A DNA stretch of 64,000 nt from positions 12,558 to 76,557 of the forward strand of contig JACOWN010000004.1 of NCBI GenBank assembly GCA_016176785.1. The letters run 5' to 3'. The notes under the pieces are model-generated. The model was given only the letters and a program-made list of their open reading frames with translations. It had not been told where the DNA came from and did no database searches. Positions 10,788-56,587 of this stretch are shown here, in pieces. The position numbers and the translations under genes were made by a program. This DNA is from Parcubacteria group bacterium (GTDB lineage: Bacteria; Patescibacteriota; Minisyncoccia; Phycocordibacterales; UBA2135). Each line of letters opens with the position of its first letter. The first letter of the stretch is position 1.

Positions 10788-10833
10788 AAAAAAGGACCGT
10801 CCTTGGGGGCGGTTATCCACAGTTTTTTCCACA
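10788..10833. repeat. Composite repeat, copy a: palindrome AAAAAAGGACCGTCCTT plus tandem DnaA-box-like TTATCCACAG and TTTTCCACAG.
   Basis: Read directly from the sequence, between the rpoD stop and the helicase start. It belongs to a 6-member family. Confidence 0.85.
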
Positions 10834-10851
10834 GTTAACTGCTAGCGACTG

Positions 10852-12141
10852 CTAGTAATTCTCCAGCCGCTTTGCCCGCTCGTGCTGGCGGATTTTCTCA
10901 TGCGCTTTGGCTTCAATTTGGCGAATGCGTTCACGGGTAACGCCGAACTCGCGCCCCACCTCCTCAAGCGTGTGTATGACGCCGTCGGTAAGGCCGTGGC
11001 GCATCTCCAAAATTTTCCGTTCCTTCGGCGTTAATTCCCCCAAAATCTCCTGGATCTGGTCGCGAAGGATCCGAAGCGACGCTTCTTGCGCCGGAGAAGC
11101 GATACGGTCATCCTCAATAAAATCCCCGAAAGTTGATTTCTCGTCATCGTCGCCCACCGGACTTTCAAGCGAAATGGTGTCTTGGTCAATGCTCTGGATA
11201 ATGTGTATTTTTTTCACGTCAAGGCCCATCTCCGCCGCGATCTCCTCGGGCAGCGGGTCACGCCCCAAATCCTGTGAAAGGCGGCGCACGACCTGCTTAT
11301 ATTTCGCGATGGTTTCAACCATGTGAACGGGGATGCGGATGGTGCGCGATTGGTCGGCAAGCGCGCGGGTGATCGCTTGCCTGATCCACCACGTGGCATA
11401 CGTTGAGAACTTGTAACCCTTGGTCGGGTCAAATTTTTCAATCGCTTTGAAAAGGCCGATGTTGCCCTCTTGTATGAGGTCAAGAAGCGAGAGATCCCTG
11501 CTCCGCCCGACATAGCGTTTTGCGATGGAAACAACGAGGCGGAGATTCGCCTTCGCAAGCAGGTTTTTCGCTTCTTCGTCGCCCCCCTGGATCCGGCGCG
11601 CGAGCGTTTTTTCGTCCGATGCGGTAATAAGCGGATATTTGCCGATTTCCTTCAAATACATTTGGATTGAGTCAATGGACGATTCGTCGCCTCCGCCGCG
11701 GTATCTTCCTTCAACGACCGCCTCTTTCCCATCGCCGTCAAGAAGCGTCCCGCTTTCAACAATATCAATCCCTTCGCCGCTTAACCGGTCGTAGAGGGAT
11801 TCCAAAAAAGGAATGTCGTCCTCTATTGTCGGGAATGCCTTTAAAATCTCGTCATGCGTCACAAAACGCCGGTCTTTGCCTCGGGCGACCAGCTGGTCAA
11901 CGCGATGTGTGACATCGGCTTGTTTGTGAGACGGCGCCCTCTCCCGCGGAGAATGCTTCGGCGTAGCGGCGCGTTTTGCTTTCTCCTTCCGAAGATGCGC
12001 CGCCGCGACAGTGCGGCGGGGATGCCTCGCAACCGCCGCTTTCTTCCGGCGGTGCATACGCGGCGTCCCCTTGCGAGAGCCGCTCCGCCGCGGCGGCGCG
12101 CTTTTTCTTTTTTTGTTTTTTGAGGGACGTTTGTGAGACAT
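10852..12141 (-). CDS. rpoD: RNA polymerase primary sigma factor.
   Basis: Regions 1.2, 2, 3 and 4 are present ([22 protein letters not shown]). It has a basic N-terminal extension and sits immediately downstream of dnaG, the classic dnaG-rpoD operon. Confidence 0.93.
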
Positions 12142-12145
12142 GGCA

Positions 12146-13909
12146 CTATTTTGAAAATGCGCGCAACCGCTCCGAAAGCGCGTGCAACTCCCGCGAAACG
12201 CTTTGGCATGCGCGCAGCAACTCTTCCGTCCGTTCTTCGCTCTGCGCCCGTTCCGCCGCCTGAAGTTCTTTAAGCGTCTCCGCGAGGCGCCGCTTCAAGA
12301 CTCGTTCCTCGCCGCGGGCGCACAATTCTTCAAACTCGGCGGCGAGGCGCGGCGCTTCGGTATCAGTATAATACATTTCCGCCTCAAATAACATGCGGCC
12401 CTGCGCCGCCGTATCGTAGCGCGCGATATTTTCCGTGAACGTTTTTCCCGTAACGCGCAACAAGCGTTCGTCGGCGCTTCCGAGATCAATCGGCGGCGCA
12501 GGCATTTTTTTTGTCCACAAAAGCAAACCGAGAAGCCGGCGCAGGACCGCATCGGGAGCGGCTTCTCCCCCCGCCTTCTCGGGCGGCGCGATGCGCTTCT
12601 CTTTTGATCCGGGCAAACTCGCGCCCGCTTCCGGCGAAGGCGATGGTTTTACGCGGCGCACCGATTCCCATATCGCTTCTTCGGGAAGCGCAAGCTCCTC
12701 CGCTATGCGGCTGACAAAATGCGCCTGCTCAATGGGGCTGCCGAGGCGCGCGACGAACGGCACCACCGCCTGCTCAACGCGCGTGCGGTATGCATGCGCG
12801 TCGCCGCCGTGTTCTTCTTTGAGGATGGCGAGGTAAAACTCGATGACATGCATGGTCCGTTCCGCGATCTCGTTCCAACGTGAGGCGTCTGCCGCCGCAA
12901 CCGATGCCGGATCCTCGCCGTGAGGCAAGCGGATAAGGAGAACCGAGAAGCCGCGGGTAAGCGCGCGGCCGACGCTTCGCTCAAGCGCCGCGCGTCCCGC
13001 GGCGTCGGCGTCAAATGCGAAGATGAGGGTGTTCGCCATACGCCTGAGAAAATCCAAATGGTCATCGGAGAGCGCCGTTCCGGACGGCGCGACGGCGTAC
13101 TCAATGCCCGCCTGGTGCGACAGCACGACGTCCATCTGCCCTTCCACGACCATTGCTTTCCCGAGGCGCCGCATGTGGCTTTTGGCCTTGCTCAACCCGT
13201 AAAGAAGCTTTGACTTGTGGAACAGCGGGGTTTCGGGACTGTTGACGTATTTTGCCGTCGCCCCGTCCTCTGTCCCGAAAATACGTCCCGAAAACCCGAC
13301 AACGCGGCCGCTTGCGTCCGCAATGGGAAACATGATGCGGCTGCGAAAACGGTCATAGAGACGTCCGTCGCTGCCGCGGATTGCGCACCCGCTTTCAAAA
13401 AGGTCTGCGTCGCGGAAACCTTCGTTCCGCAAGAACGTCGTAAGCGCTTGCCACGACGCCGGCGCAAAACCGACGCGGAACGCGCGCGCGGTCTCCGGCG
13501 AAACGCTTCGCGCGGCGAGATATGCGCGCGCGTCGGCGTTGCGCGCGAGTTCATTCTCAAAAAAACGCGCGGCGGACTCAAGGACTCGAAAAAGACGCGC
13601 GCGCGCCTCATCTTCCGCCGGATGGTACGACCGAAGCGGCACCCCCGCCCGTTCGGCAAGCACTTTTAACGCGCCCGAAAAATCAAGCCCCTCCATGTCT
13701 TGAACGAACTGGAAAACATCCCCGCCGTTGTCGCACCCGAAACAATGGTACGTGTCCCGTTCCGGCGAAACAAAAAAAGAAGGGGTTTTTTCATTATGGA
13801 AAGGACACCGAGCTTTGTAATTCTTACCCGCCCGCTCGAGCTTCACGTATGAAGAGACGACATCAACGATGGAGAGGCGCTCTTTGATTTGCTCGACGGG
13901 AGAAGACAT
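12146..13909 (-). CDS. dnaG: DNA primase.
   Basis: Zinc ribbon [30 protein letters not shown] and a TOPRIM domain; 587 aa. Confidence 0.93.
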
Positions 13910-13997
13910 GCGAAAAGTATAACACGAACAAAAACGCGCAACCGCGCGGGACCAGACGACCCGCTTTCAGTCCCGCCGCGCCCTTTCCACCCGTCGT

Positions 13998-17678
<3,681 letters not shown>

Positions 17679-17692
17679 AAAAGCGCGCGGCG

Positions 17693-20890: not shown

Positions 20891-21139
20891 GATGCGGGGA
20901 TGGTATTACGCGCGCGCAAAACAAGGCGGCGCATCTGCCGTTGCCTTGTTTAAATGAAAAAACATCAAAAAAGACCCTCGATCATACACTCTCGGGGTTT
21001 TTGCTCGTAGTAAAGGTTAGCGTGCGGTCATGAGAACCTCTAACATGGCGCAGAGCGCCATATGGGCCGCGGGACGATTACGAACGGCCCTGCACGGGGA
21101 CGCACATCCGCTACTCAATCAGACATTCAATATGGGGGA

Positions 21140-21167
21140 AGTATAGCAAGGTCTAAAAAATTGTCAA
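21140..21167 (-). promoter_or_regulatory. Strong sigma-70-like promoter upstream of rpoB.
   Basis: On the minus strand, TTGACA-16-TATACT. It implies a leader of about 240 nt that contains a bulged hairpin plus a U-run (20973..20999), a possible attenuator. Confidence 0.45.
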
Positions 21168-21350
21168 CCCTCTTTTTATTTTTAGCGGGGATACTGGCGT
21201 CCCGGCTGCCGCCAGATATGCGCTCTTTGAAGTAAAAAGGCCTTGTTTTATTGACTCATCGTGGGATTCGCCTCGTTGTTTTCGTTCCAACGCGCTATAG
21301 GTTGTCAAGAATGGTTATCCACAGGATGAGCAACGACAAGGCGTCTCTCT

Positions 21351-22058: not shown

Positions 22059-22106
22059 ATGCGGTAATTGTAACAGGCGCGGACGAAGCGCGCCCTCAAA
22101 CGAAAA

Positions 22107-22126: not shown

Positions 22127-22147
22127 CGTTTGAAAAGAAGGTAAAAG

Positions 22148-25164: not shown

Positions 25165-25168
25165 TAAT

Positions 25169-25219
25169 GTAGAACATCGGGTGTTGAACAAAACAATGTT
25201 CAACATCGGGTGTTGAACA
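25169..25219. repeat. Two tandem copies of the TGTTCAACATCGGGTGTTGAACA palindrome: one with a degenerate left arm and one perfect.
   Basis: GTAGAACATCGGGTGTTGAACA, AAACAA, then TGTTCAACATCGGGTGTTGAACA, in the rnr/rplU convergent gap. Confidence 0.9.
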
Positions 25220-28209: not shown

Positions 28210-28245
28210 TGTGGATAACCCGCCCCAAGGACGGTCCTTTTTGGG
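28210..28245. repeat. Composite repeat, copy b, in inverted orientation: TGTGGATAA followed by the CCAAGGACGGTCCTTTTT palindrome.
   Basis: It is the reverse complement of copy a. Confidence 0.85.
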
Positions 28246-28325: not shown

Positions 28326-29033
28326 ATGCGCATATCCCGCCGTGTAGTGACCGTTGCTCTGCTCTTTCTTGGTCTTACAATCATTCCGGTACTCGCCGCA
28401 CCAGATGCTCCCCAGATAAGCGAGGACGAAGCGCGCGAAGCGATGCGCGCAAAGACCTCTCTTGAAATCGCTGCTCGGAACGATCTGAGCTGGGAGGAGC
28501 TCGGGAGAGCGATCCCGCTTCGCGGACTCAAACTTGAATACACCGCAACGGATGAAGATGTCGGCGAGACGATTCTCAAGACCGGCGGGATCACGCGCGA
28601 AAAAGCGGCGATGTCTATCTTCAGGAGAGCTGAACTGGAAATCGTTCAGGCATTTTTGGAGGGAAATCCAAATCGTGCGTATGAGGTCTTTGTGAAAATG
28701 CTTGCGGAGGTGCACGCGAAGCTCGTCGCCTATCTCAACCTTCCCCGCGGCAGTTCCTGGGAAGCTATCCGGCGCGTAAGCGCTTTGAAACAACTCGGGC
28801 TTGAACGCGACTACTCCGGCGACGGCGTGGCGCGTATGTCCGTCGGGGAAATCGGCAGGTATTTCGTAGCACAGTGGCGAGAGAGTTTCGCCGGAAACCT
28901 CGACATGCCGAGAGAAGCGCCGTGGGAAGAGTTGTTCCGGCGGGTTTGGATGCGAGAGGTCGGCCTTCCGGATGATGCGCCGACGACGACATGGCGGGAC
29001 ATATTCATTTTGGACGCCGCAAACACGAAGTAG
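28326..29033 (+). CDS. Hypothetical secreted protein with an N-terminal signal peptide.
   Basis: MRISRRVVTVALLFLGLTIIPVLAAP signal peptide; followed by a strong intrinsic terminator. It is preferred over the antisense ORF 28248..29048. Confidence 0.6.
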   Translation: MRISRRVVTVALLFLGLTIIPVLAAPDAPQISEDEAREAMRAKTSLEIAARNDLSWEELGRAIPLRGLKLEYTATDEDVGETILKTGGITREKAAMSIFRRAELEIVQAFLEGNPNRAYEVFVKMLAEVHAKLVAYLNLPRGSSWEAIRRVSALKQLGLERDYSGDGVARMSVGEIGRYFVAQWRESFAGNLDMPREAPWEELFRRVWMREVGLPDDAPTTTWRDIFILDAANTK

Positions 29034-29491: not shown

Positions 29492-30175
29492 TTGAGGGGT
29501 ATGAACGAACTCGTCAATTATTTAATCGCCGGCGGCGTTCTCAAGACGCCCCGCCTCATTGCGGCATTCCGCGCCATAGATCGCGCGGAGTTCGTTCTGC
29601 CGGAATTGAAACACGAAGCGTATCTTGATGTTCCCCTTTCAATCGGTTACGGCCAGACCATTTCCCAGCCGACGACGGTCGCCATGCTTCTTGAGTGGCT
29701 CCAACCGAAAGAGGGAAACAAAATCTTGGACGTCGGTTCCGGTTCCGGCTGGACAACGGCTCTTCTCTCCTCAATCGTCGGCGCAACAGGCCGCGTCATT
29801 GGCGTAGAATTAATTTCCGAACTCGCGGAGTTCGGGAGGCAAAACGTCGCAAAATACAACTTTATTAAAACAGGCATCGCCGAACTCAGGAACGAAAGCG
29901 CGGAATACGGTTTTCCCAAAGACGCTCCCTTTGACCGCATTCTCTCCGGAGCATCTGCAACGCGCGTGCCGTCGGCGTGGAGGGAACAGCTCGCCGTCGG
30001 CGGACGCATGGTTCTGCCCGTCAAAGATTCGGTCTGGCTGTTCGTCAAAAATCCCGACGGCTCGTTCGCTGAGGAGGAATACCCCGGCTTTGCCTTTGTC
30101 CCCTTCGTAAAGGGGACCGACGAACCTGAAAAGGACGGTTCTTTTTCAAGTTATCCACATGTGGATAACCCCTAA
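29492..30175 (+). CDS. pcm: Protein-L-isoaspartate O-methyltransferase.
   Basis: GYGQTISQPTTVAMLLEWL and the SAM motif ILDVGSGSGWTTALLS. The last 17 codons are encoded by repeat copy c. Confidence 0.85.
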   Translation: MRGMNELVNYLIAGGVLKTPRLIAAFRAIDRAEFVLPELKHEAYLDVPLSIGYGQTISQPTTVAMLLEWLQPKEGNKILDVGSGSGWTTALLSSIVGATGRVIGVELISELAEFGRQNVAKYNFIKTGIAELRNESAEYGFPKDAPFDRILSGASATRVPSAWREQLAVGGRMVLPVKDSVWLFVKNPDGSFAEEEYPGFAFVPFVKGTDEPEKDGSFSSYPHVDNP

Positions 30176-30205
30176 AAGGACCGTCCTTGGCGGTGTTTAT
30201 CCACA
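30128..30205. repeat. Composite repeat, copy c, the most complex one: palindrome, then TTATCCACA abutting TGTGGATAA (inverted DnaA boxes), then palindrome, then TTTATCCACAGG.
   Basis: It lies at the pcm/mpg convergent junction and supplies both stop codons. Confidence 0.85.
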
Positions 30206-30914: not shown

Positions 30915-33900
30915 GTGCGGATAAAATGGAGGCAGAAAACACGGCGCCCTCCCCCTTTCTCGGAGTATCCGACAGACATGTCGAACCGACTATATCCGTT
31001 TGACGAAAGCCGCCTCAAGTCGCTCTTTGAAAATTTTACCGGAGAACCTTTCAGAGCAGAGCTTGAGAAATACATCCGCGAGGAAATACTTCCCAAAATT
31101 CCCAACCCCAAGACTGGAGCGCGCGGCAACGCCCTGAATCCCGCGCTACGCGCCGCCATTGAATACGGCAGACGTCACGGCCTTTTGAAGCCCGGGCATT
31201 TGGTGATGAGTTCCGCGCTTGACGCCTGGAACGAGGAACAAAAAAAGCGTTTCCGCGAACTCTACGAAAGCGGCGCCTCGTATCGCGCCATCGCGGAGGA
31301 CCCGCTTCTCAAAGACGCTATCGCCGATTTCAAAAGCCGCACCACCGCCGTCAGCAATGCCGCGGAGCGTCTCAGGTGCGACAAGGCGAAGCGGCGGCAG
31401 GCGAAAAGAACGACTCACGAAGCAAAGAAAATTGACTCCGTATGGGGCCTGCCGGGATTCAAGGAGCGCGTGCACGCCATCGTATTGAGCGGCGCATTGG
31501 TTGATTCGGGTCCAGATGCGCTTTTTGAACTCCTTCGTAAGGAGTTTGCCGAAACCGCCAAAACATACCACCTTACGTTCAGCAAGAGCGCCTTCAAAAA
31601 GCGGCTTTACGAGCTTCTCTGGCCCCCGGACGTCGACAAGGCGCTCCAAGAGGTGATACGGGCTCGTATGGACCCCAAAAAAGAGTTCTGCCCGCTTTTC
31701 CCCCATATTCCGGAGAGCATGGTAGAACGCCGTGCGCGGTGGCACCGCGGCGTTATCACAACCAGCAAACGTTCAGGCAGGGCGGTGCCCGGTATTTTCC
31801 GCGTTCCCGCGCGAGCCGAGTTCGGCGACCTTTCAAAGTTCCGCATGCCGCAGACAAGTTTTCGCAAGCCATGTGAAATTGCGTTTGCGGACGACAAAAA
31901 CGACTGGACGCTTATGTTTCTGAACGGCGCAAATATCGGAACGCAGTATCCCGCGGACATCGTCGGCAATCCCGTGCGACGCGCGCTTTCTGACGCCGAG
32001 TTTCGGGGTGACCGCGTCGTGTTCGCGACAAACATCCTCGCCATGGAACTCAAGAAGGCCGCTGGCCCACGCAAAGTGGGACGCGCGCTTGTTATGGGCG
32101 ACAATATCAACACTAAAATCTTTGCGGATGAAGAATACCGCCGCGAAGTTGAGGACATTATTGCCAATGCCCCTGAAGACGAGGTTGCATATCAGAACGC
32201 GGAGGAACTCTTGGACAATCTTCTCGCGGGCTGGAGAAAAATCTGCGTCAAACCGAATAAAAAACCGGAATTCACGAGATCAATTTTCGTCATCCTCGGC
32301 TACAACGAAGAAGAAATCATCAAAACAATCGCGTACTGGGACGTGCATTACTGGACCCAACTGAAACAAAACGAATTGAGCGCGAAGATAAAAGTTACCT
32401 CTCTTGCGCTTGCGGCAGCCGAAAGAAACGATGACTGGACGCGTTTTGCCGAGAATGAACGCCGTCTAGAAATCCTGCAGGAGCGCCTTAATCGTACGCG
32501 CGTGACGAATGTTGCGACCCAGGAGTGGCAACGTTTTTACAATCGCGCCCGCGCGCTCGTCGTACGGAAAATTGAACGGGCGATCCCGAACGCAAAAGTC
32601 ATCGGCCAAGGAACGACACTCGTAAAGATCGACGGCGAGATTATTGAAATTAATATTCCGCATCATGACAGAGTAACCGACGCGCTCCTCAAGAACTATG
32701 CCGGAAATTACGGACCGAGGAATCTCCGAGAAATGCTCGCAAAGACCGTCGTTATCTGCGGTCCATGGGGAATCCAGTTCCGCGGGACGGTCCGCGAAGC
32801 CGATTACGACGGCAAGCGCGGTTCAGCGAAGATTTTTGTCGCGCCGATCGATGTTGACGATGCATACCTCCGCGAGATTCTTGCGGACACGGTAAAATCC
32901 GAACACCCGCTTGCAAGGGCGATGTCAAATGACCAGTTTTTCCCCGGCGTTTTGCGCTTAAGCCGCGCCAATGGCGTAATTGATGCGGATTTCGTTCCCG
33001 TCAAAGCGCTTGAGGCGCATAAAAAATATCCCAAACCGCGGCGCCAGAACCGGGATAGCGTAAGGCATTTTTCGCCTTACGCGCAAGGTACAAAGTACAT
33101 CTGGATAGAAATTCCCTCGGACCCTCATTGGGGCGGGCGCTCAAAGGAGTTCGTCACCGATAAGGCAAGCGGCAAGCGTCTCGGCATGGGTGAAGCGGTA
33201 TTTGAGATGCAGCGCCGCGAGGGGCTCTGCGTAGGCACAGCGATGCCGGTGCATATTGTCGCGGTTTGCGATGACCCCTCGCAAGGGCAGAACTTTCCCG
33301 CGCGCACGCAGCCGCATCCGCACGAACTCTCGCCGCAGCGCATTGAAGAGCTTTCGCTCGCACTCATGAAACATGCGGACCGCATACAAGATCCCCAGGA
33401 ATTCCGCGAAATCCTCCGCTCAATGAACCGATTCTACAGTTACCAAATTGAAACTCGCGCCGCTGATTTCCCGCACCACCAGATGTTCCAAATGATCGAA
33501 CGACAAATCATGCCGAATGCGGATATTTGGAGCGCGGTGCTCCGTCGCGCGCGACATGCCGGGCTTGTTGTTCGCGGCTTGAGCGCGTTCCCCGAAGCGC
33601 GCGAAGCATACGCGCTTGCGCGGGAAGACACGCGCGATGTCGGCATCTTGAACTTCGGCTCCGGAAACCACATGGAACACACGGTGAACGGAGAGATTAT
33701 TGAGGGACCGTTCTATGCGTTTATCCTCCGGCTTTTGCTCGGGAAACAGGACGAATGGCACGGCGAGGAGGAATTTCTCCGCCGCATGGTCGCCGCGCCG
33801 CATTACAGCGGCAAAGCGATCGGTTGGGGACGATTCCGCGTCGGTAACGGTTATGAATACGGCCTCGAAGTGCGCGACTCGCCTCCTCGGATGAGCGGCT

Positions 33901-34253
33901 GGGGCGACCCGATTTACGGAGCGGTCAAAAACGATCCCCAGCGAGGTAACTATTCGCGTATCTTTAACGGCCGCATGGCGGTGAAGATTTACGGCGACAA
34001 ACACTTCTTCGGAACGGCGGCAACGGACTACGCGCTCTACCATATGAGCGCGTCGGGCACGCATACGGACAGGTACGGCGAATACGGATTCCCTCCGAAC
34101 AATACCGGCGTATCGTTTGTCGGGCTTCCCGTTGACGGCCCCGACAGCGGCCCGATTCTCATCCGTTATCTCCCGTTCGATGTCATCAAGGATTTCGTGG
34201 AAGATAACCCCCGTCCGTTTGACTGGGAAAAATATCTCCAGAATCCCGCGTAA
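30915..34253 (+). CDS. Large hypothetical protein, 1112 aa from a GTG at 30915, or 1091 aa from the ATG at 30978. It has no recognisable domains.
   Basis: Uninterrupted ORF with a balanced, non-repetitive composition; a strong intrinsic terminator immediately downstream; no TM segments or signal peptide evident. Confidence 0.7.
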   Translation: MRIKWRQKTRRPPPFSEYPTDMSNRLYPFDESRLKSLFENFTGEPFRAELEKYIREEILPKIPNPKTGARGNALNPALRAAIEYGRRHGLLKPGHLVMSSALDAWNEEQKKRFRELYESGASYRAIAEDPLLKDAIADFKSRTTAVSNAAERLRCDKAKRRQAKRTTHEAKKIDSVWGLPGFKERVHAIVLSGALVDSGPDALFELLRKEFAETAKTYHLTFSKSAFKKRLYELLWPPDVDKALQEVIRARMDPKKEFCPLFPHIPESMVERRARWHRGVITTSKRSGRAVPGIFRVPARAEFGDLSKFRMPQTSFRKPCEIAFADDKNDWTLMFLNGANIGTQYPADIVGNPVRRALSDAEFRGDRVVFATNILAMELKKAAGPRKVGRALVMGDNINTKIFADEEYRREVEDIIANAPEDEVAYQNAEELLDNLLAGWRKICVKPNKKPEFTRSIFVILGYNEEEIIKTIAYWDVHYWTQLKQNELSAKIKVTSLALAAAERNDDWTRFAENERRLEILQERLNRTRVTNVATQEWQRFYNRARALVVRKIERAIPNAKVIGQGTTLVKIDGEIIEINIPHHDRVTDALLKNYAGNYGPRNLREMLAKTVVICGPWGIQFRGTVREADYDGKRGSAKIFVAPIDVDDAYLREILADTVKSEHPLARAMSNDQFFPGVLRLSRANGVIDADFVPVKALEAHKKYPKPRRQNRDSVRHFSPYAQGTKYIWIEIPSDPHWGGRSKEFVTDKASGKRLGMGEAVFEMQRREGLCVGTAMPVHIVAVCDDPSQGQNFPARTQPHPHELSPQRIEELSLALMKHADRIQDPQEFREILRSMNRFYSYQIETRAADFPHHQMFQMIERQIMPNADIWSAVLRRARHAGLVVRGLSAFPEAREAYALAREDTRDVGILNFGSGNHMEHTVNGEIIEGPFYAFILRLLLGKQDEWHGEEEFLRRMVAAPHYSGKAIGWGRFRVGNGYEYGLEVRDSPPRMSGWGDPIYGAVKNDPQRGNYSRIFNGRMAVKIYGDKHFFGTAATDYALYHMSASGTHTDRYGEYGFPPNNTGVSFVGLPVDGPDSGPILIRYLPFDVIKDFVEDNPRPFDWEKYLQNPA

Positions 34254-36289: not shown

Positions 36290-36360
36290 GCTTTAAGTAT
36301 ATCAGAAGCAGACGCCGCGGCGCTTGCTGTTTGTCCACAGCTTTCGCCAATTTCAAGATT

Positions 36361-38798: not shown

Positions 38799-40973
38799 CT
38801 AGCGGACAATAAGGCCGTTCAACACATTGAACACCGCGCCGAAAAATACTGTCGGATTCAATGACTGCGGTGCGGGAGCCGGTTCTGACGGAGGAGGCGG
38901 CAGCGGAGAAAAGTCAGTCGGAGGCGGCGGCTCGCTCGGAGCGATAAAGTTTTGAGGCGGGAGCGGCTCGGCGGTCGGGAAAGGCATCGTTTGCGGAACG
39001 GCCCCTTCTTCTCGCGGAGGAGGGGGCATAAATCCCCCCTCGGGAGGCATCACAGGAAAACCGTTCTCACCCTCGGAAAATCCTTCGGGACGCATCGGCA
39101 TTGCCTGCGGAATGAACCGCTCCATCTCGTCCGGTCTCTTCATTTCTGTATCCCCCCGTTCGCCTTCCCGCATTTCACGCGGCATACCGCCGTCGGGAGA
39201 TTGGAACGGAATGCGGTCCCCCTCTTCCTTTGGGCGGTTAAAGAATCCCGGGAACCCTCGGGGAGGAACCGAAGAGCCGTCTTGCGGCATCATTCCCTCT
39301 TGCGGCATTGCGCGCGGAAGCGGCGGCCGCATTTCGCGTCCTTCACCCGGCGGAAATCCTTGCGGTGGGCCGGATTCTCCTTCCTTAAACTCTCCGAAAA
39401 ATTGTTCGTCGCGACGAGGCATTTCACCGCGCTCAAACTGCGCGCGTATCTGGTTGAACTTGTCAAACCGTTCTTGGAACTCCGGCGGGACATCTCCCGG
39501 AACGCCGCCCGGACCGAAACCGGGAGGAGAACCGAAACCGGGAGGCGGGCCAAACCCCGCGGGCCCTCTTCCGCGCGGCTCAAACCTCTCAACTTCCACA
39601 AACCGCTGAAGTTCTTTTTTCGCTTCGTTCGGATTAAGGAATCCTTCGTTGACGGCAAATGCCGTGCATTCTTCAAAATGCGACGGGTCGGAACAGTACT
39701 TTCGGCACTCGCCTTCCCCGCGGCAGCCGCCGGGGCCGCCTTGCTCCTGAACTTTTTTGTCAAGGGATTTGAATTTTTCGATCCGCGCGAGCTCCTTGGG
39801 CGGCAGGAGGCCGTTTGTTTTTGCAAACTCAAAACATTCATCGCGGTGCGCGGGGTCGCCGCAGTACTGCTCACACTCCCTGCCGCGGCAGCCGCCGGGA
39901 CCGCCCGCCTGCGATGCGGCAAGAAACTTTCGCGCTTGCGCCGCTTCGTCCGGCTTCATCAAACCGTTCTGTTCGGCGAACGCAAGACACTCTTCTTCGT
40001 GACCGGGTGTTTCGCAATAATCGCGGCATTCTTGCCCGCGGCAGCCGCCGGGGCCTTCAACGTCAAGCAACCGCTCAAATTTCTCCGCATCCGCCCTGTC
40101 CTCAAACAGGTCGTGTTCTTTTGCGAACGCGAGGCAGGTTTTCCCGTTTGCCGGATTTGAACAGAACTGGTCGCACTCTTCAAATCCTTGGCAACCGCCC
40201 GGACCGCCTCCCGCCTCCTCCAAAACTCGTTGGGCCTTTTCAACGTCAATCCGCGGTCCGGGTGGGCCACCGCCCGGACGAGGCGTGCCGCGGCCAGGGG
40301 CCCCGGGAAATTCGCCGCGAAGGAACTTTTTCGCTTCTTCCGCTTCATCAGAACTCATCTGCCCTTCGGCGACCGCAAAGTCAATGCACTCCACTTGGTG
40401 CGTTGAACAGTATGAGTTGCACTCCGCAGCGCTTCGGCATCCGCCCGGGCCGCCGCGTTTTGCTCGCGCCGCTTCCTCGGAACTTATCTGCCCTTCGGCG
40501 ACCGCAAAGTCAATGCAGGTGTTTGAATTGGCCGGTTCATTGCAGAATGCGTTGCATTGTTCCGGCGTTCGGCAGCCGCCCGGGCCGCCGCGCCGCGCGC
40601 GCGCCGCCTCCCCGGGACTTATATGGCCATTCGCTTCGGCAAAACCGATGCACTCGTCAAAATTTGACGGCGTATCGCAATACGAACGGCATTCGTTTTC
40701 ACCGCGGCATCCGCCGGGGCCGCCTTCATCGGGAACCGGAGCGGGACCGCCAACGTCAAACCCGCGGCCTCTCGCCCATTCAACGCACCGGCTCGTATTG
40801 GCGGCATCATCGCAATACTCCGCACACTCATCAAGCGAGCCGCAATTTCCGAGTTCGGCGACGGGAAACTCAATATCAAAAGGGTTGATCTGCGCGCGCG
40901 CGTCCTCGCCTGAAAACGCAAAAACACCGACAAACGCCGCGAAAAGAATGAGGGGGTAAATAAAGTATTTCAT
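38799..40973 (-). CDS. Secreted tandem-repeat protein: a signal peptide, eight ~45-aa cysteine-rich repeats, and a C-terminal Pro/Gly/Glu/Met-rich low-complexity region.
   Basis: Start at MKYFIYPLILFAAFVGVFAFSG (signal peptide). The repeat consensus is GGPGGCRG.xEC..YC..P.....C..FA...G.....EA..A, with 4 Cys per repeat. The last ~250 aa are PGFGPPPGF/MPP-rich, ending in a hydrophobic TVFFGAVFNVLNGLIVR. Confidence 0.75.
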   Translation of the reverse strand: MKYFIYPLILFAAFVGVFAFSGEDARAQINPFDIEFPVAELGNCGSLDECAEYCDDAANTSRCVEWARGRGFDVGGPAPVPDEGGPGGCRGENECRSYCDTPSNFDECIGFAEANGHISPGEAARARRGGPGGCRTPEQCNAFCNEPANSNTCIDFAVAEGQISSEEAARAKRGGPGGCRSAAECNSYCSTHQVECIDFAVAEGQMSSDEAEEAKKFLRGEFPGAPGRGTPRPGGGPPGPRIDVEKAQRVLEEAGGGPGGCQGFEECDQFCSNPANGKTCLAFAKEHDLFEDRADAEKFERLLDVEGPGGCRGQECRDYCETPGHEEECLAFAEQNGLMKPDEAAQARKFLAASQAGGPGGCRGRECEQYCGDPAHRDECFEFAKTNGLLPPKELARIEKFKSLDKKVQEQGGPGGCRGEGECRKYCSDPSHFEECTAFAVNEGFLNPNEAKKELQRFVEVERFEPRGRGPAGFGPPPGFGSPPGFGPGGVPGDVPPEFQERFDKFNQIRAQFERGEMPRRDEQFFGEFKEGESGPPQGFPPGEGREMRPPLPRAMPQEGMMPQDGSSVPPRGFPGFFNRPKEEGDRIPFQSPDGGMPREMREGERGDTEMKRPDEMERFIPQAMPMRPEGFSEGENGFPVMPPEGGFMPPPPREEGAVPQTMPFPTAEPLPPQNFIAPSEPPPPTDFSPLPPPPSEPAPAPQSLNPTVFFGAVFNVLNGLIVR

Positions 40974-40983
40974 GGAGAGAATC

Positions 40984-41241
40984 CTATCTGAAAGGATTAA
41001 CGGCGCCGCCGCTCTCAAACGGGTTTGTGTACGCTCCGCCCACCGGATTGGCCGCCGTCTCAAACGGATTCGCCTTCTGCGCAATTTCCGCCTGCGCCGC
41101 CTCCTTTTGCGCCGCGAGAAGGTCGCTTTGGCCTTTTGAGTAGCCGAAATAGTAACCGCCGCCGAGACCGATAACGATCGCGACCGCCACGATGACCCAC
41201 ATATTGATTGCTCCTTCTTCGTATTCGTGGTTCATAGACAC
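40984..41241 (-). CDS. Hypothetical small membrane protein, 85 aa, immediately upstream of the Cys-repeat gene.
   Basis: One TM helix (WVIVAVAIVIGLGGGYYFGY), then three N-P-F motifs (ANPFET, TNPFES, VNPF). It sits 8 nt upstream of the next ATG. Confidence 0.5.
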   Translation of the reverse strand: MSMNHEYEEGAINMWVIVAVAIVIGLGGGYYFGYSKGQSDLLAAQKEAAQAEIAQKANPFETAANPVGGAYTNPFESGGAVNPFR

Positions 41242-41356: not shown

Positions 41357-41402
41357 TTTTCCACACCCCCGAAAAGGACGGTCCTTTTGGGGTTTATCCA
41401 CA
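41357..41402. repeat. Composite repeat, copy d: TTTTCCACA, then the palindrome AAAAGGACGGTCCTTTT, then TTTATCCACACG.
   Basis: It lies downstream of mnmA in the gap 41242..41414. Confidence 0.85.
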
Positions 41403-41414
41403 CGTTATCAACAA

Positions 41415-46127: not shown

Positions 46128-46186
46128 TTATTTGATAAATGAGAAGATAGCCTATTCCTAGCACCCCTGTCAAGCCGCGTCAAGGG

Positions 46187-48628: not shown

Positions 48629-48682
48629 AGCGTTGCTTTGAACGAGTCGCGGCGCGCAAAATGCGCGCCGCGGTTGGCGGGA

Positions 48683-49258: not shown

Positions 49259-49423
49259 GACGAGTGGCGTGCGGTTATGCGCCGCCGGCAAATAAGACGC
49301 TGGTAATCATGGAGCATACTATACCACAAAAACAGGGAAAGAAAAACTCTGCGCCGGCGGCGCTTGACGCCGCTCCCGCCGGGGGTACAGTTCAGAAAGA
49401 AGTGCCGAGAGAATGGTGTGTTC

Positions 49424-50302: not shown

Positions 50303-50340
50303 GCCGAGCGAACGAAAATCGCCTCGGCTTTTTCAATCTT

Positions 50341-50386
50341 AAAAAAAGGACGGTCCTTTTCGGAGTTTTCCACAGGTTTTCCACAG
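50341..50386. repeat. Composite repeat, copy e: the palindrome AAAAAAAGGACGGTCCTTTT plus two tandem TTTTCCACAG boxes.
   Basis: It lies between the sigma gene and ychF, which are convergent. Confidence 0.85.
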
Positions 50387-50401
50387 TTATTGGCCCGCTG
50401 T

Positions 50402-51478
50402 CTATATTTTGAACTCAATAACATCGCCGTCTTTGACGATGTAGTCACGCCCCTCGGTTCTGACGAGCCCTTGTTCGCGCGCTACGGCGTATGACCCCGC
50501 GGCAAGCAGGTCCGCGGCGGCAATCACCTCCGCGCGAATAAACTTGTCCCTGAAATCGGTATGGATCGCGGCGCCCGCCTCCGGGGCCGTTCCACCGCGC
50601 GGAATCGTCCACCCCCTCGTTTCATCGGGGCCGGTCGTAAAGAAGGTAATGAGACCGAGAATCTCGTACCCTTTCTGAATAAGCGCGTCGAGCCCCGCCG
50701 AAGAAACGCCGAACTCTTGCCGCGCGAGCGCGCGGTCGTCGGGGGTGAAGTTCGCAACATCCTTTTCAAACGCGCTGTCAAGCGAAACCCACGCCGCGCC
50801 CGACGCTTCAAAAAAATCACGGAGCGCATCCGGCAATTCCTCTTTCTCAACCGACCGGTTCACGACATACAAAATCGGCTTGAGGGTCAGGAGGTTCAAG
50901 TGCTTTACCGCCGCGCGCTCTTCGTCGGAAAGAGGAAACGCCCGGGCAAGTTTCCCGCCGTCAAAATGGCGCTCAAGTTTTTCGAGAACCGCCTGTTCGG
51001 TTCGTGCACCCTTGTCGCCGCTCCGCACTTCCCTCTCAATGCTGGTGCGCCGCTTCGCCACAACTTGATGGTCGGCAAGCACGAGCTCAAGATTGACGAC
51101 TTCAATATCGCGAAACGGGTTTATCGTGCCGTGGACGTGCGTAACGTCGCCGTTCTCAAAGACGCGCACGACTTCCGCTATCGCGTCAACCTCTCTGATG
51201 TGGGAAAGGAACTGATTGCCGAGTCCCTCGCCCTCCGATGCTCCCGCCACCAAACCGGCTATATCAGTGAACTCCACGACGGCCGGAATCACTTTTGCCG
51301 ACTGCGAGAGCCCGGCGAGTTGCGTGAGCCGTTCATCCGGCACCGGCACGATGCCGACCGACGGGTCAATCGTGCAAAAAGGATAATTTTCCGCCGGCAC
51401 GCTTCTGCCCGTCAGCGCGTTAAAAAGCGTGGACTTTCCCACGTTCGGAAGACCGACGATGCCGATGGAGAGTGACAT
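50402..51478 (-). CDS. ychF: Ribosome-binding ATPase YchF (Obg-like GTPase family).
   Basis: G1 motif GLPNVGKSTLFNALT and a TGS C-terminal domain. The start is at MSLSIGIVG. Confidence 0.9.
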   Translation of the reverse strand: MSLSIGIVGLPNVGKSTLFNALTGRSVPAENYPFCTIDPSVGIVPVPDERLTQLAGLSQSAKVIPAVVEFTDIAGLVAGASEGEGLGNQFLSHIREVDAIAEVVRVFENGDVTHVHGTINPFRDIEVVNLELVLADHQVVAKRRTSIEREVRSGDKGARTEQAVLEKLERHFDGGKLARAFPLSDEERAAVKHLNLLTLKPILYVVNRSVEKEELPDALRDFFEASGAAWVSLDSAFEKDVANFTPDDRALARQEFGVSSAGLDALIQKGYEILGLITFFTTGPDETRGWTIPRGGTAPEAGAAIHTDFRDKFIRAEVIAAADLLAAGSYAVAREQGLVRTEGRDYIVKDGDVIEFKI

Positions 51479-51520
51479 ATGAATGAGAGTGTATAGAAAA
51501 GCCGCCCGTTTTACAAACGA

Positions 51521-51550
51521 AAAGCCCCGCCTTTCGGCTGGGCTTTTCGC
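51521..51550. terminator. Terminator-like hairpin with flanking A and T runs, downstream of the O-antigen-ligase-like gene.
   Basis: AAAAGCCCCGCCTTTCGGCTGGGCTTTTCG; the stem has one mismatch. Confidence 0.4.
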
Positions 51551-51654
51551 AGACATTCGGATGCTCGGAACTCCAAGCACTCACCAAAACAGTTTAGCAA
51601 ATATGAGCCGCGAAGTCAATAACGGGGTGTGGATAGCGTCCGCCGCGTTGCGTC

Positions 51655-53931: not shown

Positions 53932-54039
53932 TTCCCCACTATACTAAAAACATCATAAAAATGCCACTTTTTGACGGGGCGGCGGTTTTCGGTGTATAGA
54001 TGATGAAGAGCCGGAGTGTCTTGAGAAAGGGCCAGGGGC

Positions 54040-55137
54040 ATGGCGAAGAGCGTTGTGTTTGTCGCTGAGCAGGAAGCGCCGTCTCAGGTTTTTGCGCGTC
54101 TCGCTGATCACATTGCGGGCCGCTACGGCCACGGCGGATGGCTTGCGTGCCATCTCGGCTACGGAGAAAAGATCAGTTCTTTTCCGCGTCTTGCGCGTGA
54201 TGTCGCGGAAGCGGTATGCGTTCTGGCCGGTGTGTCTCCGGAACGAGGTCTCGCGGACGCCGAGGTCGCTGCGTGCGGCACGGCGCATGTAAATGGTATC
54301 CCGTACGGACTCTACGCGGACACATGGAGCCGCGCGAGAGGCACAATGCATTATCCGCGTGAAGTCCGCGCCGCCGCATCATTCATTTTTCTGGCGGACG
54401 AGTGCGACAAGAAAGCCGTGCGGAAACGATTCCCGAACGCAACCGTTACGGTCACCGGCAACCCCATCTGGGAAAGTTTTTTCTTTTCCGAAGACACGAA
54501 GGATGCGGCGCGCGCATTGCTCAGCGGCGCATGCGACATATTCGGCAACCGCATCGCGTTCACGCCGCAGGACTCGGTCATTCTCTGCGCCGGAGGAACG
54601 GACTACGCCGAGAACGTTCTTCACTTCGGCAGCGTTATGAACGCCTTCGCAATGAGCCGAGGACAACTCTGGGCAAAAAATGCCGCCGTCGTTTTTGCGC
54701 CGCATCGAAGGGATTTTTCCGAGCCGGAGGCATACCGCTTCTTTTCGCGATCAGCGAATGGGGTGCGCACCTTCGTGGCGCAAGGGAGCGCGTTCCCGAT
54801 ATCGCGTCTGACCGCCGCTTCCGACCTTGTCGTTGATGCGCGGACATTGGCTGGCGTTGAGGCAATGTGTCTCCGGAAACCGGTCATTGATTTTTGCACC
54901 GCCTTATCAATCGCGCGGTATCGGAATGGGAACGGATACAGCCGTTTTGAACCGTCTCTCCGCGGCGCAGTGCATACGGTATACGGCGACACCAACATGC
55001 TCGCGTTCTCGATCCAGCATTTTTTGGGTTCGGGAGGCGCCGGCATGCGGGAACGCCAAGAATTGTTCATGCCGCGGCCGGAGCGGAAAGGAAGCGCTCT
55101 TGAAAAAATGTATGAGGCGCTGAAGAGATTTTTCTAA
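54040..55137 (+). CDS. Hypothetical GT-B-fold-like protein (paralog A). It has the motif architecture of the UDP-GlcNAc 2-epimerase/LpxB/MurG superfamily, but no specific family is assigned.
   Basis: 365 aa; motifs VVFVAEQEAPS…, TVTGNPIW, ILCAGGTDYAENVLHFG, and SDLVVDARTLAGVEAMCLRKPVIDF. It is clearly paralogous to 55323..56413. Confidence 0.65.
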   Translation: MAKSVVFVAEQEAPSQVFARLADHIAGRYGHGGWLACHLGYGEKISSFPRLARDVAEAVCVLAGVSPERGLADAEVAACGTAHVNGIPYGLYADTWSRARGTMHYPREVRAAASFIFLADECDKKAVRKRFPNATVTVTGNPIWESFFFSEDTKDAARALLSGACDIFGNRIAFTPQDSVILCAGGTDYAENVLHFGSVMNAFAMSRGQLWAKNAAVVFAPHRRDFSEPEAYRFFSRSANGVRTFVAQGSAFPISRLTAASDLVVDARTLAGVEAMCLRKPVIDFCTALSIARYRNGNGYSRFEPSLRGAVHTVYGDTNMLAFSIQHFLGSGGAGMRERQELFMPRPERKGSALEKMYEALKRFF

Positions 55138-55160
55138 CGCAAACGCCTCATGTAGCAAAA

Positions 55161-55183
55161 CCGTCCCCTCGGGACGGTTTTTT
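55161..55183 (+). terminator. Intrinsic terminator after paralog A.
   Basis: CCGTCCCCTCGGGACGGTTTTTT. Confidence 0.8.
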
Positions 55184-55222
55184 ATTGACAGCTGGCCGCC
55201 TGCGTCGCGGGTTAATTAATTT

Positions 55223-55245
55223 GTTCAACATCGGGTGTTGAACAT
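55223..55245. repeat. Palindrome TGTTCAACATCGGGTGTTGAACA, copy 3.
   Basis: It is part of a ~90-bp cassette (terminator, then TTGACAGCTGGCC…TTAATT, then the palindrome) that is duplicated at 56449..56528. Confidence 0.9.
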
Positions 55246-55322
55246 AAAATATGTAGCACTTGACTGTTGGCCGCCTGTGTGCGAGAATGCTTCCGGACGA
55301 AAATACTGTTTGAGAGGCAGAA

Positions 55323-56413
55323 ATGAGCCTGCTGCTCCTTGTCGCTACGGATAAAGCCCCATCGTCCGCATTTGAAAAATTTGCAATCGCTACGAACATG
55401 CGCGAAAGGGGTGAGGCTGCCACTCTCATTGGCCACGGGATAAAGATTTCATCAGGAGAAGTTGGAAGCTCTTTTGCCAAGCTTAACCCGGGTTGCGTGC
55501 TCATCGGCATGTCTTCCAAAGAGATAAACTCCGAGGGAGAAATACGCGCTTGCGAGATCGCGCGTGAGCGCGGCATTCCGTATGGATTCTACGCCGACAC
55601 GTACGGCGCGGTGACCGGGCGGCCACAGTTCACTGCGGCGTTAAAGGAGGGGGCTTCGTTCCTCTTCGTGCGGAATCAGACGGAAGCCGATCGCGCGCGT
55701 GGACACTTCCCGCGCTCCGTTATCGTCGTTTCGGGCAACGTCATGCAGGAGGATTGGTTTTATCCGACCGCTACCTATGAAGACGTGCGCCGGAAGATGG
55801 ACGTCGCGCCCCGGGAACTCGCGGTGCTGTGCCCGTCCGGAAAAGAGCTCGTGGTGAACCTCATCCATTTCGGCGCGGCGATTGAAGCGGCGAAGATATG
55901 CCGTTTGGAACGCCGGATGGATATGCGCGTTTTTCTTGCTATTCATCCGGGCGATCCAAAGGAGAATTATGAACATTACCTGGCTCTTGCGAGATTTTCA
56001 CAGTCGGTGCCAGATTTTCACAGTCGGTGCCGGTTCGCGCAGTGGGAAAAGAAATAATGTCAACGGGAGAGCTTCTGGTCGGATGCGACATCGTGGTCGC
56101 ATCCATGTCAACAGTAAGCGACGAGGCGGCGTGCCAGCGAAAACCCGTCATTGATTTCATGAGTGACATAGCGCTTGGAATACACGAAAAAACAGCCGGA
56201 CGCCGCGACTGGGAACCGTGCAATGAGGGAGCTTCGTTCCCGGTCCACGGAGACACCGGTGCACTTGCGCACGCCATGCACGGACTGCTTGCGGAAGGAT
56301 CTCCGCTTCGGGTTGAGCAGCGAAAAAATCAGGAACGCATGTTCCCTCTGCCGCGGGAACGCGGAGAAGCAGTGCGCCTGATGCACGAAACTATCGTAAA
56401 GTTCCTTAAGTAA
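55323..56413 (+). pseudogene. Paralog B of the GT-B-like gene, disrupted by a 20-bp tandem duplication that splits it into ORFs 55323..56057 and 56027..56413.
   Basis: The two ORFs align collinearly with paralog A (GIPYGFYADTYG vs GIPYGLYADTWS; QRKPVIDFMSD vs LRKPVIDFCTA; VHGDTGALAHAMHGLL vs VYGDTNMLAFSIQHFL). Removing one 20-bp copy restores a single frame. Confidence 0.7.
55992..56031. repeat. Perfect 20-bp tandem direct duplication (AGATTTTCACAGTCGGTGCC)x2.
   Basis: Read directly. 20 nt is not a multiple of 3, so it causes the frameshift in paralog B. Confidence 0.95.
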
Positions 56414-56430
56414 TAAAGTTCCTTAAGTAA
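56397..56430. repeat. Perfect 17-bp tandem duplication (TAAAGTTCCTTAAGTAA)x2 spanning the paralog B stop codon.
   Basis: Read directly. It duplicates the last 4 codons and the stop. Confidence 0.95.
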
Positions 56431-56448
56431 AACCCGCAACCGCAAACA

Positions 56449-56471
56449 CCGTCCCCTCGGGACGGTTTTTT
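56449..56471 (+). terminator. Intrinsic terminator after paralog B, identical to the one at 55161.
   Basis: CCGTCCCCTCGGGACGGTTTTTT. Confidence 0.8.
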
Positions 56472-56505
56472 ATTGACAGCTGGCCACCTGCGTCGTGGAT
56501 TAATT

Positions 56506-56528
56506 TGTTCAACATCGGGTGTTGAACA
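56506..56528. repeat. Palindrome TGTTCAACATCGGGTGTTGAACA, copy 4.
   Basis: Perfect copy, in the second cassette. Confidence 0.9.
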
Positions 56529-56553
56529 AAGCGGTTTTTAAAATGTATAGCGA

Positions 56554-56587
56554 ATATGTGCCCAAAAAGGACCCGTCCTTCTCCTGC
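56554..56587. repeat. Composite repeat, copy f: AAAAAGGACCCGTCCTT plus TTTATCCACAGCGG.
   Basis: It sits just downstream of the cytidylyltransferase stop, on the minus strand. Confidence 0.8.

Follow-up and report, generated by a model that had tools for sequence, protein, structure and literature searches.

Repetitive extragenic palindromes (REPs), together with their associated tyrosine transposases (RAYTs), are the closest described systems to the repeat reported here. By definition, a REPtron comprises one tnpA-REP gene with its own REPs on either side, and REPs and bacterial interspersed mosaic elements (BIMEs) dispersed between genes as singles and inverted doublets, and classical REPs present a GTAG or GTGG tag immediately 5' of the hairpin foot (PMC6006769). 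In E. coli, the BIME-1/RIP/RIB elements carry an IHF site between two REPs (Boccard and Prentki 1993, as cited in PMC6006769). This work concerns a dispersed composite repeat, a 13-bp palindrome coupled to a 9-mer that resembles the DnaA box, in a stretch of 64,000 nucleotides from a Parcubacteria group bacterium (GCA_016176785.1, contig JACOWN010000004.1, positions 12,558 to 76,557 of the forward strand). This whole stretch is called the window.

The explanation proposed, with a probability of about 0.8, is that the repeats are REP hairpins of a RAYT-type Y1/HUH transposase family in Patescibacteria (Candidate Phyla Radiation, CPR), with putative DnaA boxes built into them. The narrower identification as REP/RAYT elements is slightly firmer and can be considered very likely. 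The observations on which this explanation is based are the repeat statistics, the fixed spacing, the covariation of the hairpin, the presence of a physically linked Y1 gene at 12 independent loci, the similarity of fold to 4er8, and the conservation confined to the 9-mer.

The composite repeat and its distribution

The core palindrome AAGGAC-N-GTCCTT is present in seven copies in the window, where about 0.1 is expected. The search for AAGGACNGTCCTT with up to one mismatch returned six copies (0.09 expected), and the seventh, at 56567-56580, has a centre of 2 nt. Exact TTWTCCACA boxes number 12 against 0.89 expected from dinucleotide-preserving shuffles (n=100), none of which reached 12, and 11 of the 12 adjoin a palindrome, either 7-8 bp away or one box further out. 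At all six sites the module consists of the perfect 13-bp palindrome AAGGAC-S-GTCCTT and the 9-mer TTATCCACA or TTTTCCACA, 7-8 bp apart. A first-pass annotation of this DNA had listed these six modules, and reading the sequence at each of them located all six at or near the positions given. Its estimate of less than one chance 9-mer per 64 kb agrees with the shuffles, and the over-representation that it claimed is real, but its figure of at least 13 boxes is reached only by including one-mismatch boxes. The latter number 46 against 22 expected. Among the three solitary boxes that had been proposed, the one at 21315 is exact, while those at 36331 (TTGTCCACA) and around 51630 (CTATCCACA) are one-mismatch matches and may be due to chance, because this class is enriched just about twofold.

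The features of the six sites are the following (those without strand are symmetric cores or doublets).
10792-10804, no strand: site 1, REP core AAGGACCGTCCTT, between sigA (10852-12141, minus strand) and an AddA/UvrD-like helicase gene (7720-10743, minus strand)
10813-10821 and 10825-10833, plus strand: site 1, direct box doublet TTATCCACA and TTTTCCACA, 3 bp apart, the first box 8 bp from the core
28210-28218, minus strand: site 2, DnaA box (TGTGGATAA on the plus strand), 8 bp from the core and 3 nt past the yqeY stop
28227-28239, no strand: site 2, REP core AAGGACGGTCCTT, in the tandem gap between yqeY (plus) and the gene at 28326-29033 (plus)
30128-30205, no strand: site 3, doublet like a REPIN (REP doublet forming hairpin), between the convergent genes pcm (plus) and MPG glycosylase (minus)
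30131-30143, no strand: site 3, first core AAGGACGGTTCTT, with 1 mismatch
30151-30159 (plus strand) and 30160-30168 (minus strand): site 3, boxes arranged head to head
30176-30188 and 30197-30205 (plus strand): site 3, second core and outer box, respectively
41357-41365, plus strand: site 4, left box TTTTCCACA, 8 bp left of the core, in a non-canonical, inward-reading orientation
41374-41386, no strand: site 4, REP core AAGGACGGTCCTT, with an extended stem CCCC..GGGG, 28 nt past the mnmA stop
41394-41402 and 41405-41413, plus strand: site 4, right boxes TTATCCACA and its degenerate partner TTATCAACA, 2 bp apart
50346-50358, no strand: site 5, REP core AAGGACGGTCCTT, between a convergent sigma-factor gene (plus, with its own GC-hairpin terminator) and ychF (minus)
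50366-50374 and 50377-50385, plus strand: site 5, direct doublet of TTTTCCACA and TTTTCCACA, 2 bp apart
56567-56580, no strand: site 6, REP core variant AAGGACCCGTCCTT with a 2-nt centre, 21 nt past the stop of a cytidylyltransferase-like gene (56602-57279, minus)
56589-56597, plus strand: site 6, DnaA box TTATCCACA, 8 bp from the core

The sixth module is thus present, but the span first given for it (56554-56587) ends before its own box. All the window copies are extragenic except site 3, which overlaps just the final codons of pcm and MPG, two convergent genes. The site 3 doublet folds into a long hairpin, both as RNA (-41 kcal/mol, z -6.0) and as single-stranded DNA (ssDNA; -19 kcal/mol, z -5.3). 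Regarding the two genes, the open reading frames (ORFs) of pcm and of the 3-methyladenine glycosylase enter the doublet (30119-30205), and the last ~11-19 codons and the stop of both are repeat-derived. The density of palindromes, seven in 64 kb, corresponds to ~110 per Mb or ~1 per 9 kb, and E. coli REPs are present at a similar density. The window is a chromosomal housekeeping stretch with rpoB, rpoC, sigA, dnaG, ftsH, trmD, mnmA, and ychF. The product of sigA has 100% identity to a protein from an NCBI 'Parcubacteria group bacterium' MAG (metagenome-assembled genome), whereas three window proteins looked up by exact sequence were absent from the collection. Neither dnaA, which the first reading had likewise not seen in the window, nor oriC was found in it or in the fetched DNA, the query being an E. 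coli DnaA sequence.

Public collections were scanned with the composite pattern of palindrome and box. The genome collection returned eight loci, and all those with a taxon name are metagenome-assembled genomes (MAGs) of Patescibacteria (Saccharibacteria, Vogel- and Yonathbacteria, Paceibacterota). The metagenome collection returned 44 loci with a GC content of 26-57%. Viral contigs gave zero matches, and a phage origin was rejected on this basis. The element is not confined to the window by local duplication, since it recurs across Patescibacteria lineages.

The genomic context was analyzed with 89 pooled non-redundant palindromes and with genes called by our own codon-usage method. The gaps that hold palindromes are tandem in 46 cases, convergent in 14, and divergent in 4, the background numbers being 232, 40, and 40. 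The palindromes sit close to stop codons, 0-50 nt after them, and are rare in divergent gaps. Inverted doublets of ~77-90 bp are present in L012, L017, L021, L022, L028, L033, L036, and L044, as well as in L056, L057, and at site 3 of the window, and the arrangement palindrome, two to three boxes, palindrome recurs in at least three palindrome dialects (lineage-specific forms of the core). As ssDNA, the symmetric 47-bp unit forms a strong hairpin (z -11.5). Moreover, positions 1-6 of the core flanks are complementary in 47-67% of the copies compared with 27-39% in shuffles, and each of the four Watson-Crick pair types is represented. A MITE (transposable element of the miniature inverted-repeat type) with target-site duplications was also considered and rejected: the symmetric copies are not bordered by visible duplications, and the copies of the window genome have different spacers.

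Three further observations were made on these loci. In two related genomes a tRNA-Val gene begins 7-9 nt past the outer palindrome of a REP doublet (L014 7304-7399 and L021 149-240). At L022 4560-4810, the homology with L036 and L048 is perfect across the REP doublet and is lost within a few bases of its outer edge, which is consistent with rearrangement or insertion at REPs. Finally, a Saccharibacteria-labelled MAG (L004 4040-4130, CAYPCM010000036.1) carries a module nearly identical to site 1 of the window (10785-10850), box doublet included, although the window comes from the Parcubacteria group; this points to mis-binning, mislabelling, or an unusually conserved orthologous site.

The linked Y1 transposase

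Comparing the loci with one another revealed a conserved segment common to L006, L018, and L025 and bracketed by palindromes. In L006 the segment encodes, between two palindrome copies, a protein of 225 aa with the motifs YHIYNRG, HFHFLV (HUH), and YIHINP. This protein passes the Pfam family Y1_Tnp (26.7 bits, gathering cutoff 23), and its best NCBIfam match is REP_Tyr_transpos (NF047646, 'REP-associated tyrosine transposase'; 30.3 bits, E 3.2e-7). Y1_Tnp also matches 38 of 38 homologues, and the motifs HFH and YIHLNP are invariant. Among the loci that had been fetched purely by DNA motif, tblastn detected homologues with 43-77% identity in seven independent lineages; about 0.3 such matches would be expected by chance, a rough figure that assumes a single-copy gene per ~1-Mb genome. 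In each of the seven, a palindrome lies 38-110 nt upstream of the Y1 start and another 11-49 nt past the stop.

As an independent test of the linkage, five loci (L055-L059) were chosen by the protein alone, without the DNA motif. All five carry a lineage-specific palindrome upstream of the Y1 gene, and four of them, the exception being L056, also carry one after the stop. Taking both sets together, the palindrome is present within ~140 nt upstream in 12 of 12 Y1 loci and, in all but L056, also within ~250 nt downstream. The neighbours of the five protein-selected loci are unrelated housekeeping genes, and no tnpB was present there. Their palindrome dialects are the following.
L055: CCAAGGGG-W-CCCCTTGG (AAGGGG-W-CCCCTT)
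L056: AAGGCC-S-GGCCTT
L057: CCAAGGTT-G-ATCCTTGG (AAGGTT-G-ATCCTT)
L058: GCAAGGTT-T-AACCTTGC (AAGGTT-T-AACCTT)
L059: CCGAGGTT-W-AACCTCGG (GAGGTT-W-AACCTC)

Across the dialects the outer AAGG..CCTT is kept, and substitutions in the two inner pairs compensate each other (AC/GT, CC/GG, GG/CC, TT/AA). Such compensatory changes, in the core and in the flanks, are what would be expected of selection on a hairpin that co-evolves with its enzyme. The palindrome-recognising factor that the first-pass annotation had left unnamed can be named as a RAYT-like Y1 transposase, whose gene is flanked by the same palindrome in related genomes, and of the three options that this annotation had offered, the evidence favours the REP/MITE-like selfish repeat. 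The element is not the terminal repeat of an insertion sequence (IS) or a MITE in the classical sense. A database search yielded more than 5,200 homologues, all the named ones from Patescibacteria (Lloyd-, Roizman-, Yonath-, and Kaiserbacteria, Minisyncoccia, Parcubacteria, Paceibacterota). They are annotated just as 'transposase' or 'hypothetical', and their clusters are mostly on one to three contigs each. In L059 (900-13000), the RAYT-like gene is located inside a type IV pilus cluster (pilM, pilB, pilT, pilC, pilins), with a pilin gene on one side and the gene for the prepilin peptidase on the other.

Most RAYT-like genes also hold their own REP palindrome in the coding sequence at conserved positions (~+142 to +190, or +487). 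In the motif-seeded lineages this further copy is often found at +142/+166 or +487, and in three of the five protein-selected loci at ~+155-190. It is translated as part of a loop, e.g. ..KGRSF.. or ..AQGQSLR.., and suggests autoregulation or an ancient in-frame REP insertion. The intragenic copies are the following.
L006: 3973 (gene-oriented coordinate; ORF 3838-4515)
L018: 3345
L031, L010, and L026: one copy within the ORF
L055: 10156-10179
L058: 10170-10192
L059: 10162-10189

The AlphaFold model of the Y1 protein has a pLDDT of 88.9, and its best fold match in the PDB is 4er8_A, the E. coli RAYT bound to its REP hairpin (Foldseek probability 1.0, target TM 0.65). Searching the PDB chains by sequence with the protein or its profile gave no match, so that the fold comparison was needed. 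The CPR Y1 proteins end in a conserved C-terminal region of ~70 aa without assigned function, and no DnaA_C-like domain was detectable in the transposase by domain and fold searches.

The 9-mer and the competing explanations

The distance between core and box is 8 bp in 59 of the ~77 boxes and in 29 of the 38 boxes that lie outside the seed pattern. The profile of these 38 non-seed boxes is T.97, T.97, A/T, T.97, C.82, C.84, A.89, C 1.0, A.92. Conservation ends exactly at the edges of the 9-mer, the flanking positions are not conserved, and degeneracy falls on positions 3 and 5, as in TTWTNCACA. The first reading had described the box as nearly always trailed by G, which does not hold across lineages, where the trailing G reaches just.39. 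Concerning the arrangement of the boxes, seven of the 11 same-orientation pairs within 40 bp are spaced by 3 bp and one by 2 bp; those of the window are 10813/10825, 50366/50377, and 41394/41405. In E. coli, chromatin immunoprecipitation sequencing located DnaA binding in vivo mainly at box pairs 2-3 bp apart (PMC11317965).

In three or more palindrome dialects the hairpin core has drifted but the 9-mer keeps its consensus, which is expected for a reader of frozen specificity and not for a co-evolving enzyme. REP lineages without boxes retain the same C-terminal region in the transposase. Furthermore, among the five protein-selected loci, dispersed copies are present only in the box-bearing dialects (L056, L057), and in the box-less dialects (L055, L058, L059) the palindromes are found only around the Y1 gene; although the sample is small, this hints at a role of the boxes in the spread or retention of the REPs. 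The earlier proposal that the 9-mers are DnaA boxes is plausible and has been strengthened by the conservation profile and the pair spacing. As judged from sequence, a true DnaA box is the most likely identity of the 9-mer, and the host DnaA as its putative reader is given odds somewhat better than even. A solitary exact box, located in a different setting, has the following position.
21315-21323, plus strand: exact box TTATCCACA after trmD, beside a TTGACA hexamer upstream of rpoB, with no palindrome near
This box (CTGTGGATAA on the minus strand) is 6 nt upstream of a perfect TTGACA in the 460-nt trmD-rpoB gap and may represent a DnaA-regulated promoter or chance, perhaps unrelated to the REP family.

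Several points weigh against the explanation as REP hairpins of a RAYT family with DnaA boxes. No RAYT gene is present in the 64-kb window or in ~8 kb past its ends, and for this reason the linkage in the source genome rests on the identity of core and architecture with the RAYT-flanking copies elsewhere. The NF047646 score of 30.3 is far under the equivalog cutoff of 80, so the CPR Y1 protein is, by its sequence, a distant relative of the proteobacterial RAYTs and not an equivalog. Its signature (NHFH, YIHLNP, SS) matches subclass 2.1, which was reported without REPs (Quentin et al.). The GTAG/GTGG (or CGTC) tag directly at the hairpin foot (PMC6006769, PMC3733652) was not found in the CPR REPs, whose conserved flank is TTWTNCACA at an 8-bp offset, with the GTGG of its complement as the most variable part. 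The single window copies are weak hairpins (z about -0.4 to -2.3), and the gene calls on the metagenome loci are home-made. Finally, the rigid 8-bp spacing is also compatible with a 9-mer read by the RAYT itself, e.g. through its ~70-aa C-terminal region.

This last point leads to the possibility that the 9-mer is the flank-recognition or cleavage motif of the RAYT, like the GTAG/GTGG tag or the guide and target tetranucleotides of IS608, with the DnaA identity being coincidental or due to a reader like DnaA domain IV in the transposase. It is a tentative option, clearly weaker than reading by the host DnaA. The rigid core distance points to a single protein or complex that reads both parts; the reverse complement CTGTGGATAA, with a preceding CT in the window, contains GTGG, and classical REPs have GT[AG]G at the foot (PMC6006769). 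Moreover, subclass 2.1, with the same motif signature, has been reported with Bac_DnaA_C- or HTH-like C-terminal domains, and the C-terminal region conserved in the CPR proteins could be placed in this role. However, GTGG falls on positions 5-7 of the 9-mer, its most variable part, the trailing G (leading C in the complement) reaches 0.39 across lineages, the second and third boxes, 2-3 bp apart and away from the foot, would be left unexplained by a foot tag, the box-less lineages keep the same C-terminal domain, and the co-evolution of the hairpin core leaves the 9-mer unchanged. A module that is primarily a transcription terminator, either bidirectional and intrinsic or assisted by a DnaA roadblock, with its repetition as a by-product, is unlikely. 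The copies lie 0-50 nt past stops, enriched in convergent (14) and rare in divergent gaps (4) against 40 and 40 in the background; in six of six window modules, read along the upstream gene, a stop codon is followed by (C)TGTGGATAA, the hairpin, and a T-rich tail; DnaA bound in a transcribed region can be a roadblock (PMC11317965); and REPs elsewhere affect termination and mRNA stability (PMC3733652). Nevertheless, T-runs present no polarity in the 46 tandem gaps (mean of 3.5 on the sense and 3.4 on the antisense strand, p = 0.62), and the strict order of stop, box, and hairpin is not general, since across genomes 35 box arms face a stop and 31 a start. Single hairpins are weak and were missed by the terminator scan, ordinary terminators with GC-rich hairpin and T-run are present at many other gene ends of the window, some right beside a module, some copies lie within the transposase gene, upstream of it, or 8 nt upstream of a tRNA gene, and the linkage to the Y1 gene would remain unexplained.

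A generic intrinsic terminator was consequently rejected as the primary identity, on the lack of T-run polarity, the weak single hairpins, and the ordinary terminators elsewhere in the window. A function of the TAA in the box as a stop codon was rejected too, with just three cases, as was a promoter element, without a fixed register with -35/-10 hexamers, and a known RNA family: in the Rfam search of the window and seven loci only tRNA and large subunit (LSU) rRNA reached the gathering score. Since neither the box side nor the T-runs show polarity and there is no promoter register, the element is orientation-independent, and it is not a generic terminator, a promoter part, or a known RNA. The remaining alternative dispenses with a transposase and takes the palindrome as a duplex operator for a dimeric transcription factor or nucleoid protein acting with DnaA, or as an inverted-pair DNA-uptake signal. 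A perfect 13-bp palindrome with a single central base would fit a dimer site, the genome-specific flank dialect resembles the dialects of uptake sequences, and Patescibacteria are described as naturally competent (PMC10633639). This alternative is very improbable, as the compensatory changes of the inner core and flanks (AC/GT, CC/GG, GG/CC, TT/AA) indicate selection on a hairpin and not on a fixed operator, the element keeps no constant register to promoter hexamers, 12 loci show the palindrome in physical linkage with the Y1 gene, and its distribution, ~1 copy per 9 kb and strictly extragenic, differs from that of known uptake sequences.

Two other features of the window, unrelated to the REPs, should be mentioned. 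The ORFs at 30915-34253 (1112 aa) and 38799-41084 (761 aa) have no Pfam match and are typical CPR 'dark' proteins. There is also a second, unrelated dispersed repeat, a 23-nt hairpin TGTTCAACA-TCGGG-TGTTGAACA with five copies against 0.01 expected, one of them with 2 mismatches.
2378-2400, plus strand: 23-nt hairpin
25168-25190, plus strand: 23-nt hairpin
25197-25219, plus strand: 23-nt hairpin
55222-55244, plus strand: 23-nt hairpin
56506-56528, plus strand: 23-nt hairpin
Four of the five copies (all except 2378) are directly 3' of plus-strand genes, and one is 40 nt from REP site 6. This hairpin may represent a further REP family, a family of terminators, or a site for a regulator.

Comparison with described systems and meaning

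Like the REPtrons of E. coli and Pseudomonas, the CPR elements are short extragenic hairpins at ~100/Mb, mostly 3' of genes in tandem or convergent gaps, as singles and inverted doublets. The Y1/HUH gene may be single-copy and is flanked by its own cognate hairpins, hairpin and enzyme covary, and the nearest fold is 4er8. On the other hand, the CPR core, a 13-bp perfect palindrome centred on 1 nt, keeps its outer AAGG..CCTT across whole classes, whereas classical REPs are species-specific, and the CPR system differs further by the extra copy in the transposase ORF, the consensus DnaA boxes, and its genome-reduced Patescibacteria hosts. With BIME-1/RIP it shares a location at the 3' ends of transcription units and a host-protein site enclosed by two REPs in inverted orientation, as in the palindrome doublets with two to three boxes between them; in CPR, however, the site matches DnaA and not IHF, its binding being presumed, and boxes also accompany single REPs at the fixed 8-bp offset. 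The outside end of IS50/Tn5 includes a DnaA box, with DnaA serving as a host factor. It is thus another element end with a DnaA box, but IS50 has a DDE transposase, another architecture, and no hairpin.

TnpA-Y1 subclass 2.1/TIRYT (Quentin et al. 2018; Di Nocera et al. 2013) resembles the CPR proteins in the motifs NH[YF]H, Y[IV]HLNP, and SS and in the length of ~220-240 aa, and the Y1 gene of L057 is bracketed by 48-nt inverted repeats, 96% complementary, as in TIRYT. The Bac_DnaA_C- or HTH-like C-termini reported for this subclass are a thematic likeness; DnaA-box-like DNA was explicitly not found in the report of Y1 proteins with DnaA_C-like domains. In contrast to the CPR elements, which have REP hairpins and TTWTNCACA and no detectable DnaA_C-like domain, subclass 2.1 was reported to lack REP-like hairpins and to have flanking repeats, GGGG[AT][CG]A[CG], that do not resemble DnaA boxes. 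As for the DnaA-box clusters outside oriC (datA and DARS of E. coli, those of B. subtilis) and DnaA dimer sites, the likeness lies in the intergenic TTWTNCACA and in the same-orientation pairs 2-3 bp apart, as at E. coli sites in vivo (PMC11317965), but the known clusters are a few fixed loci, unlike the dozens to perhaps ~100 sites/Mb of CPR, each tied to a mobile-type hairpin.

In the literature searched, nothing was found that joins RAYT or REPIN with CPR, Patescibacteria, or Saccharibacteria. The 13-mer, any description of DnaA boxes in REPs, and relevant work on DnaA boxes in Saccharibacteria were likewise not found. REP/RAYT systems are well known, and, as far as found, REP-RAYT in CPR and DnaA-box-bearing REPs are apparently undescribed in the searchable literature, which agrees with the first impression that the palindrome-box pairing does not correspond to any element described so far.

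If the analogy with E. coli TnpA-REP and IS608 holds, the hairpin would form on ssDNA at the replication fork, where the RAYT would bind it and cut and rejoin near its foot. This processing would seed single units and inverted doublets (REPINs/BIMEs) into the gaps just past stop codons, spreading and maintaining the repeats, and hairpin and enzyme would co-evolve in each lineage. Located 8 bp from the core, at the extended stem's foot and in one to three copies, the TTWTNCACA would recruit or titrate the host DnaA. DnaA might help the element, by DNA opening or by coupling to replication, or the host might exploit the boxes for titration or for a transcriptional roadblock at gene ends. A more speculative view, held only tentatively, is that the boxes are a functional and selected part of the REPIN: DnaA would open or extrude the hairpin and so couple the RAYT to replication, or reload the replicative helicase (cf. 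the 'A-site', ABC primosome); or the host would have co-opted ~100 boxes/Mb as the main DnaA titration in ~1-Mb genomes without known regulators.

REP/RAYT work has so far dealt almost wholly with Proteobacteria, with some Cyanobacteria and Bacteroidetes, and REPs have been held to be species-specific. A RAYT-like family of more than 5,200 members with cognate hairpins in the streamlined ~1-Mb genomes of Patescibacteria implies persistent repeats that call for an explanation. With an outer core fixed across classes and inner pairs covarying with the enzyme, it offers a clean natural system for the study of REP-RAYT coevolution. The putative DnaA boxes, in the paired geometry preferred in E. 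coli, would tie a domesticated transposase system to the replication initiator; related Y1 proteins had earlier been reported with DnaA-domain-like C-termini without a DNA counterpart, and here the DNA motif was found. In practice, the 13-mer and the 9-mer are a simple marker for CPR annotation, for the flagging of assembly breakpoints, and for the design of DnaA and RAYT binding experiments in the few cultivable Saccharibacteria. If the functional role of the boxes is true, it would mean a superphylum-wide, vertically inherited partnership of a domesticated transposase, its hairpins, and the replication initiator.

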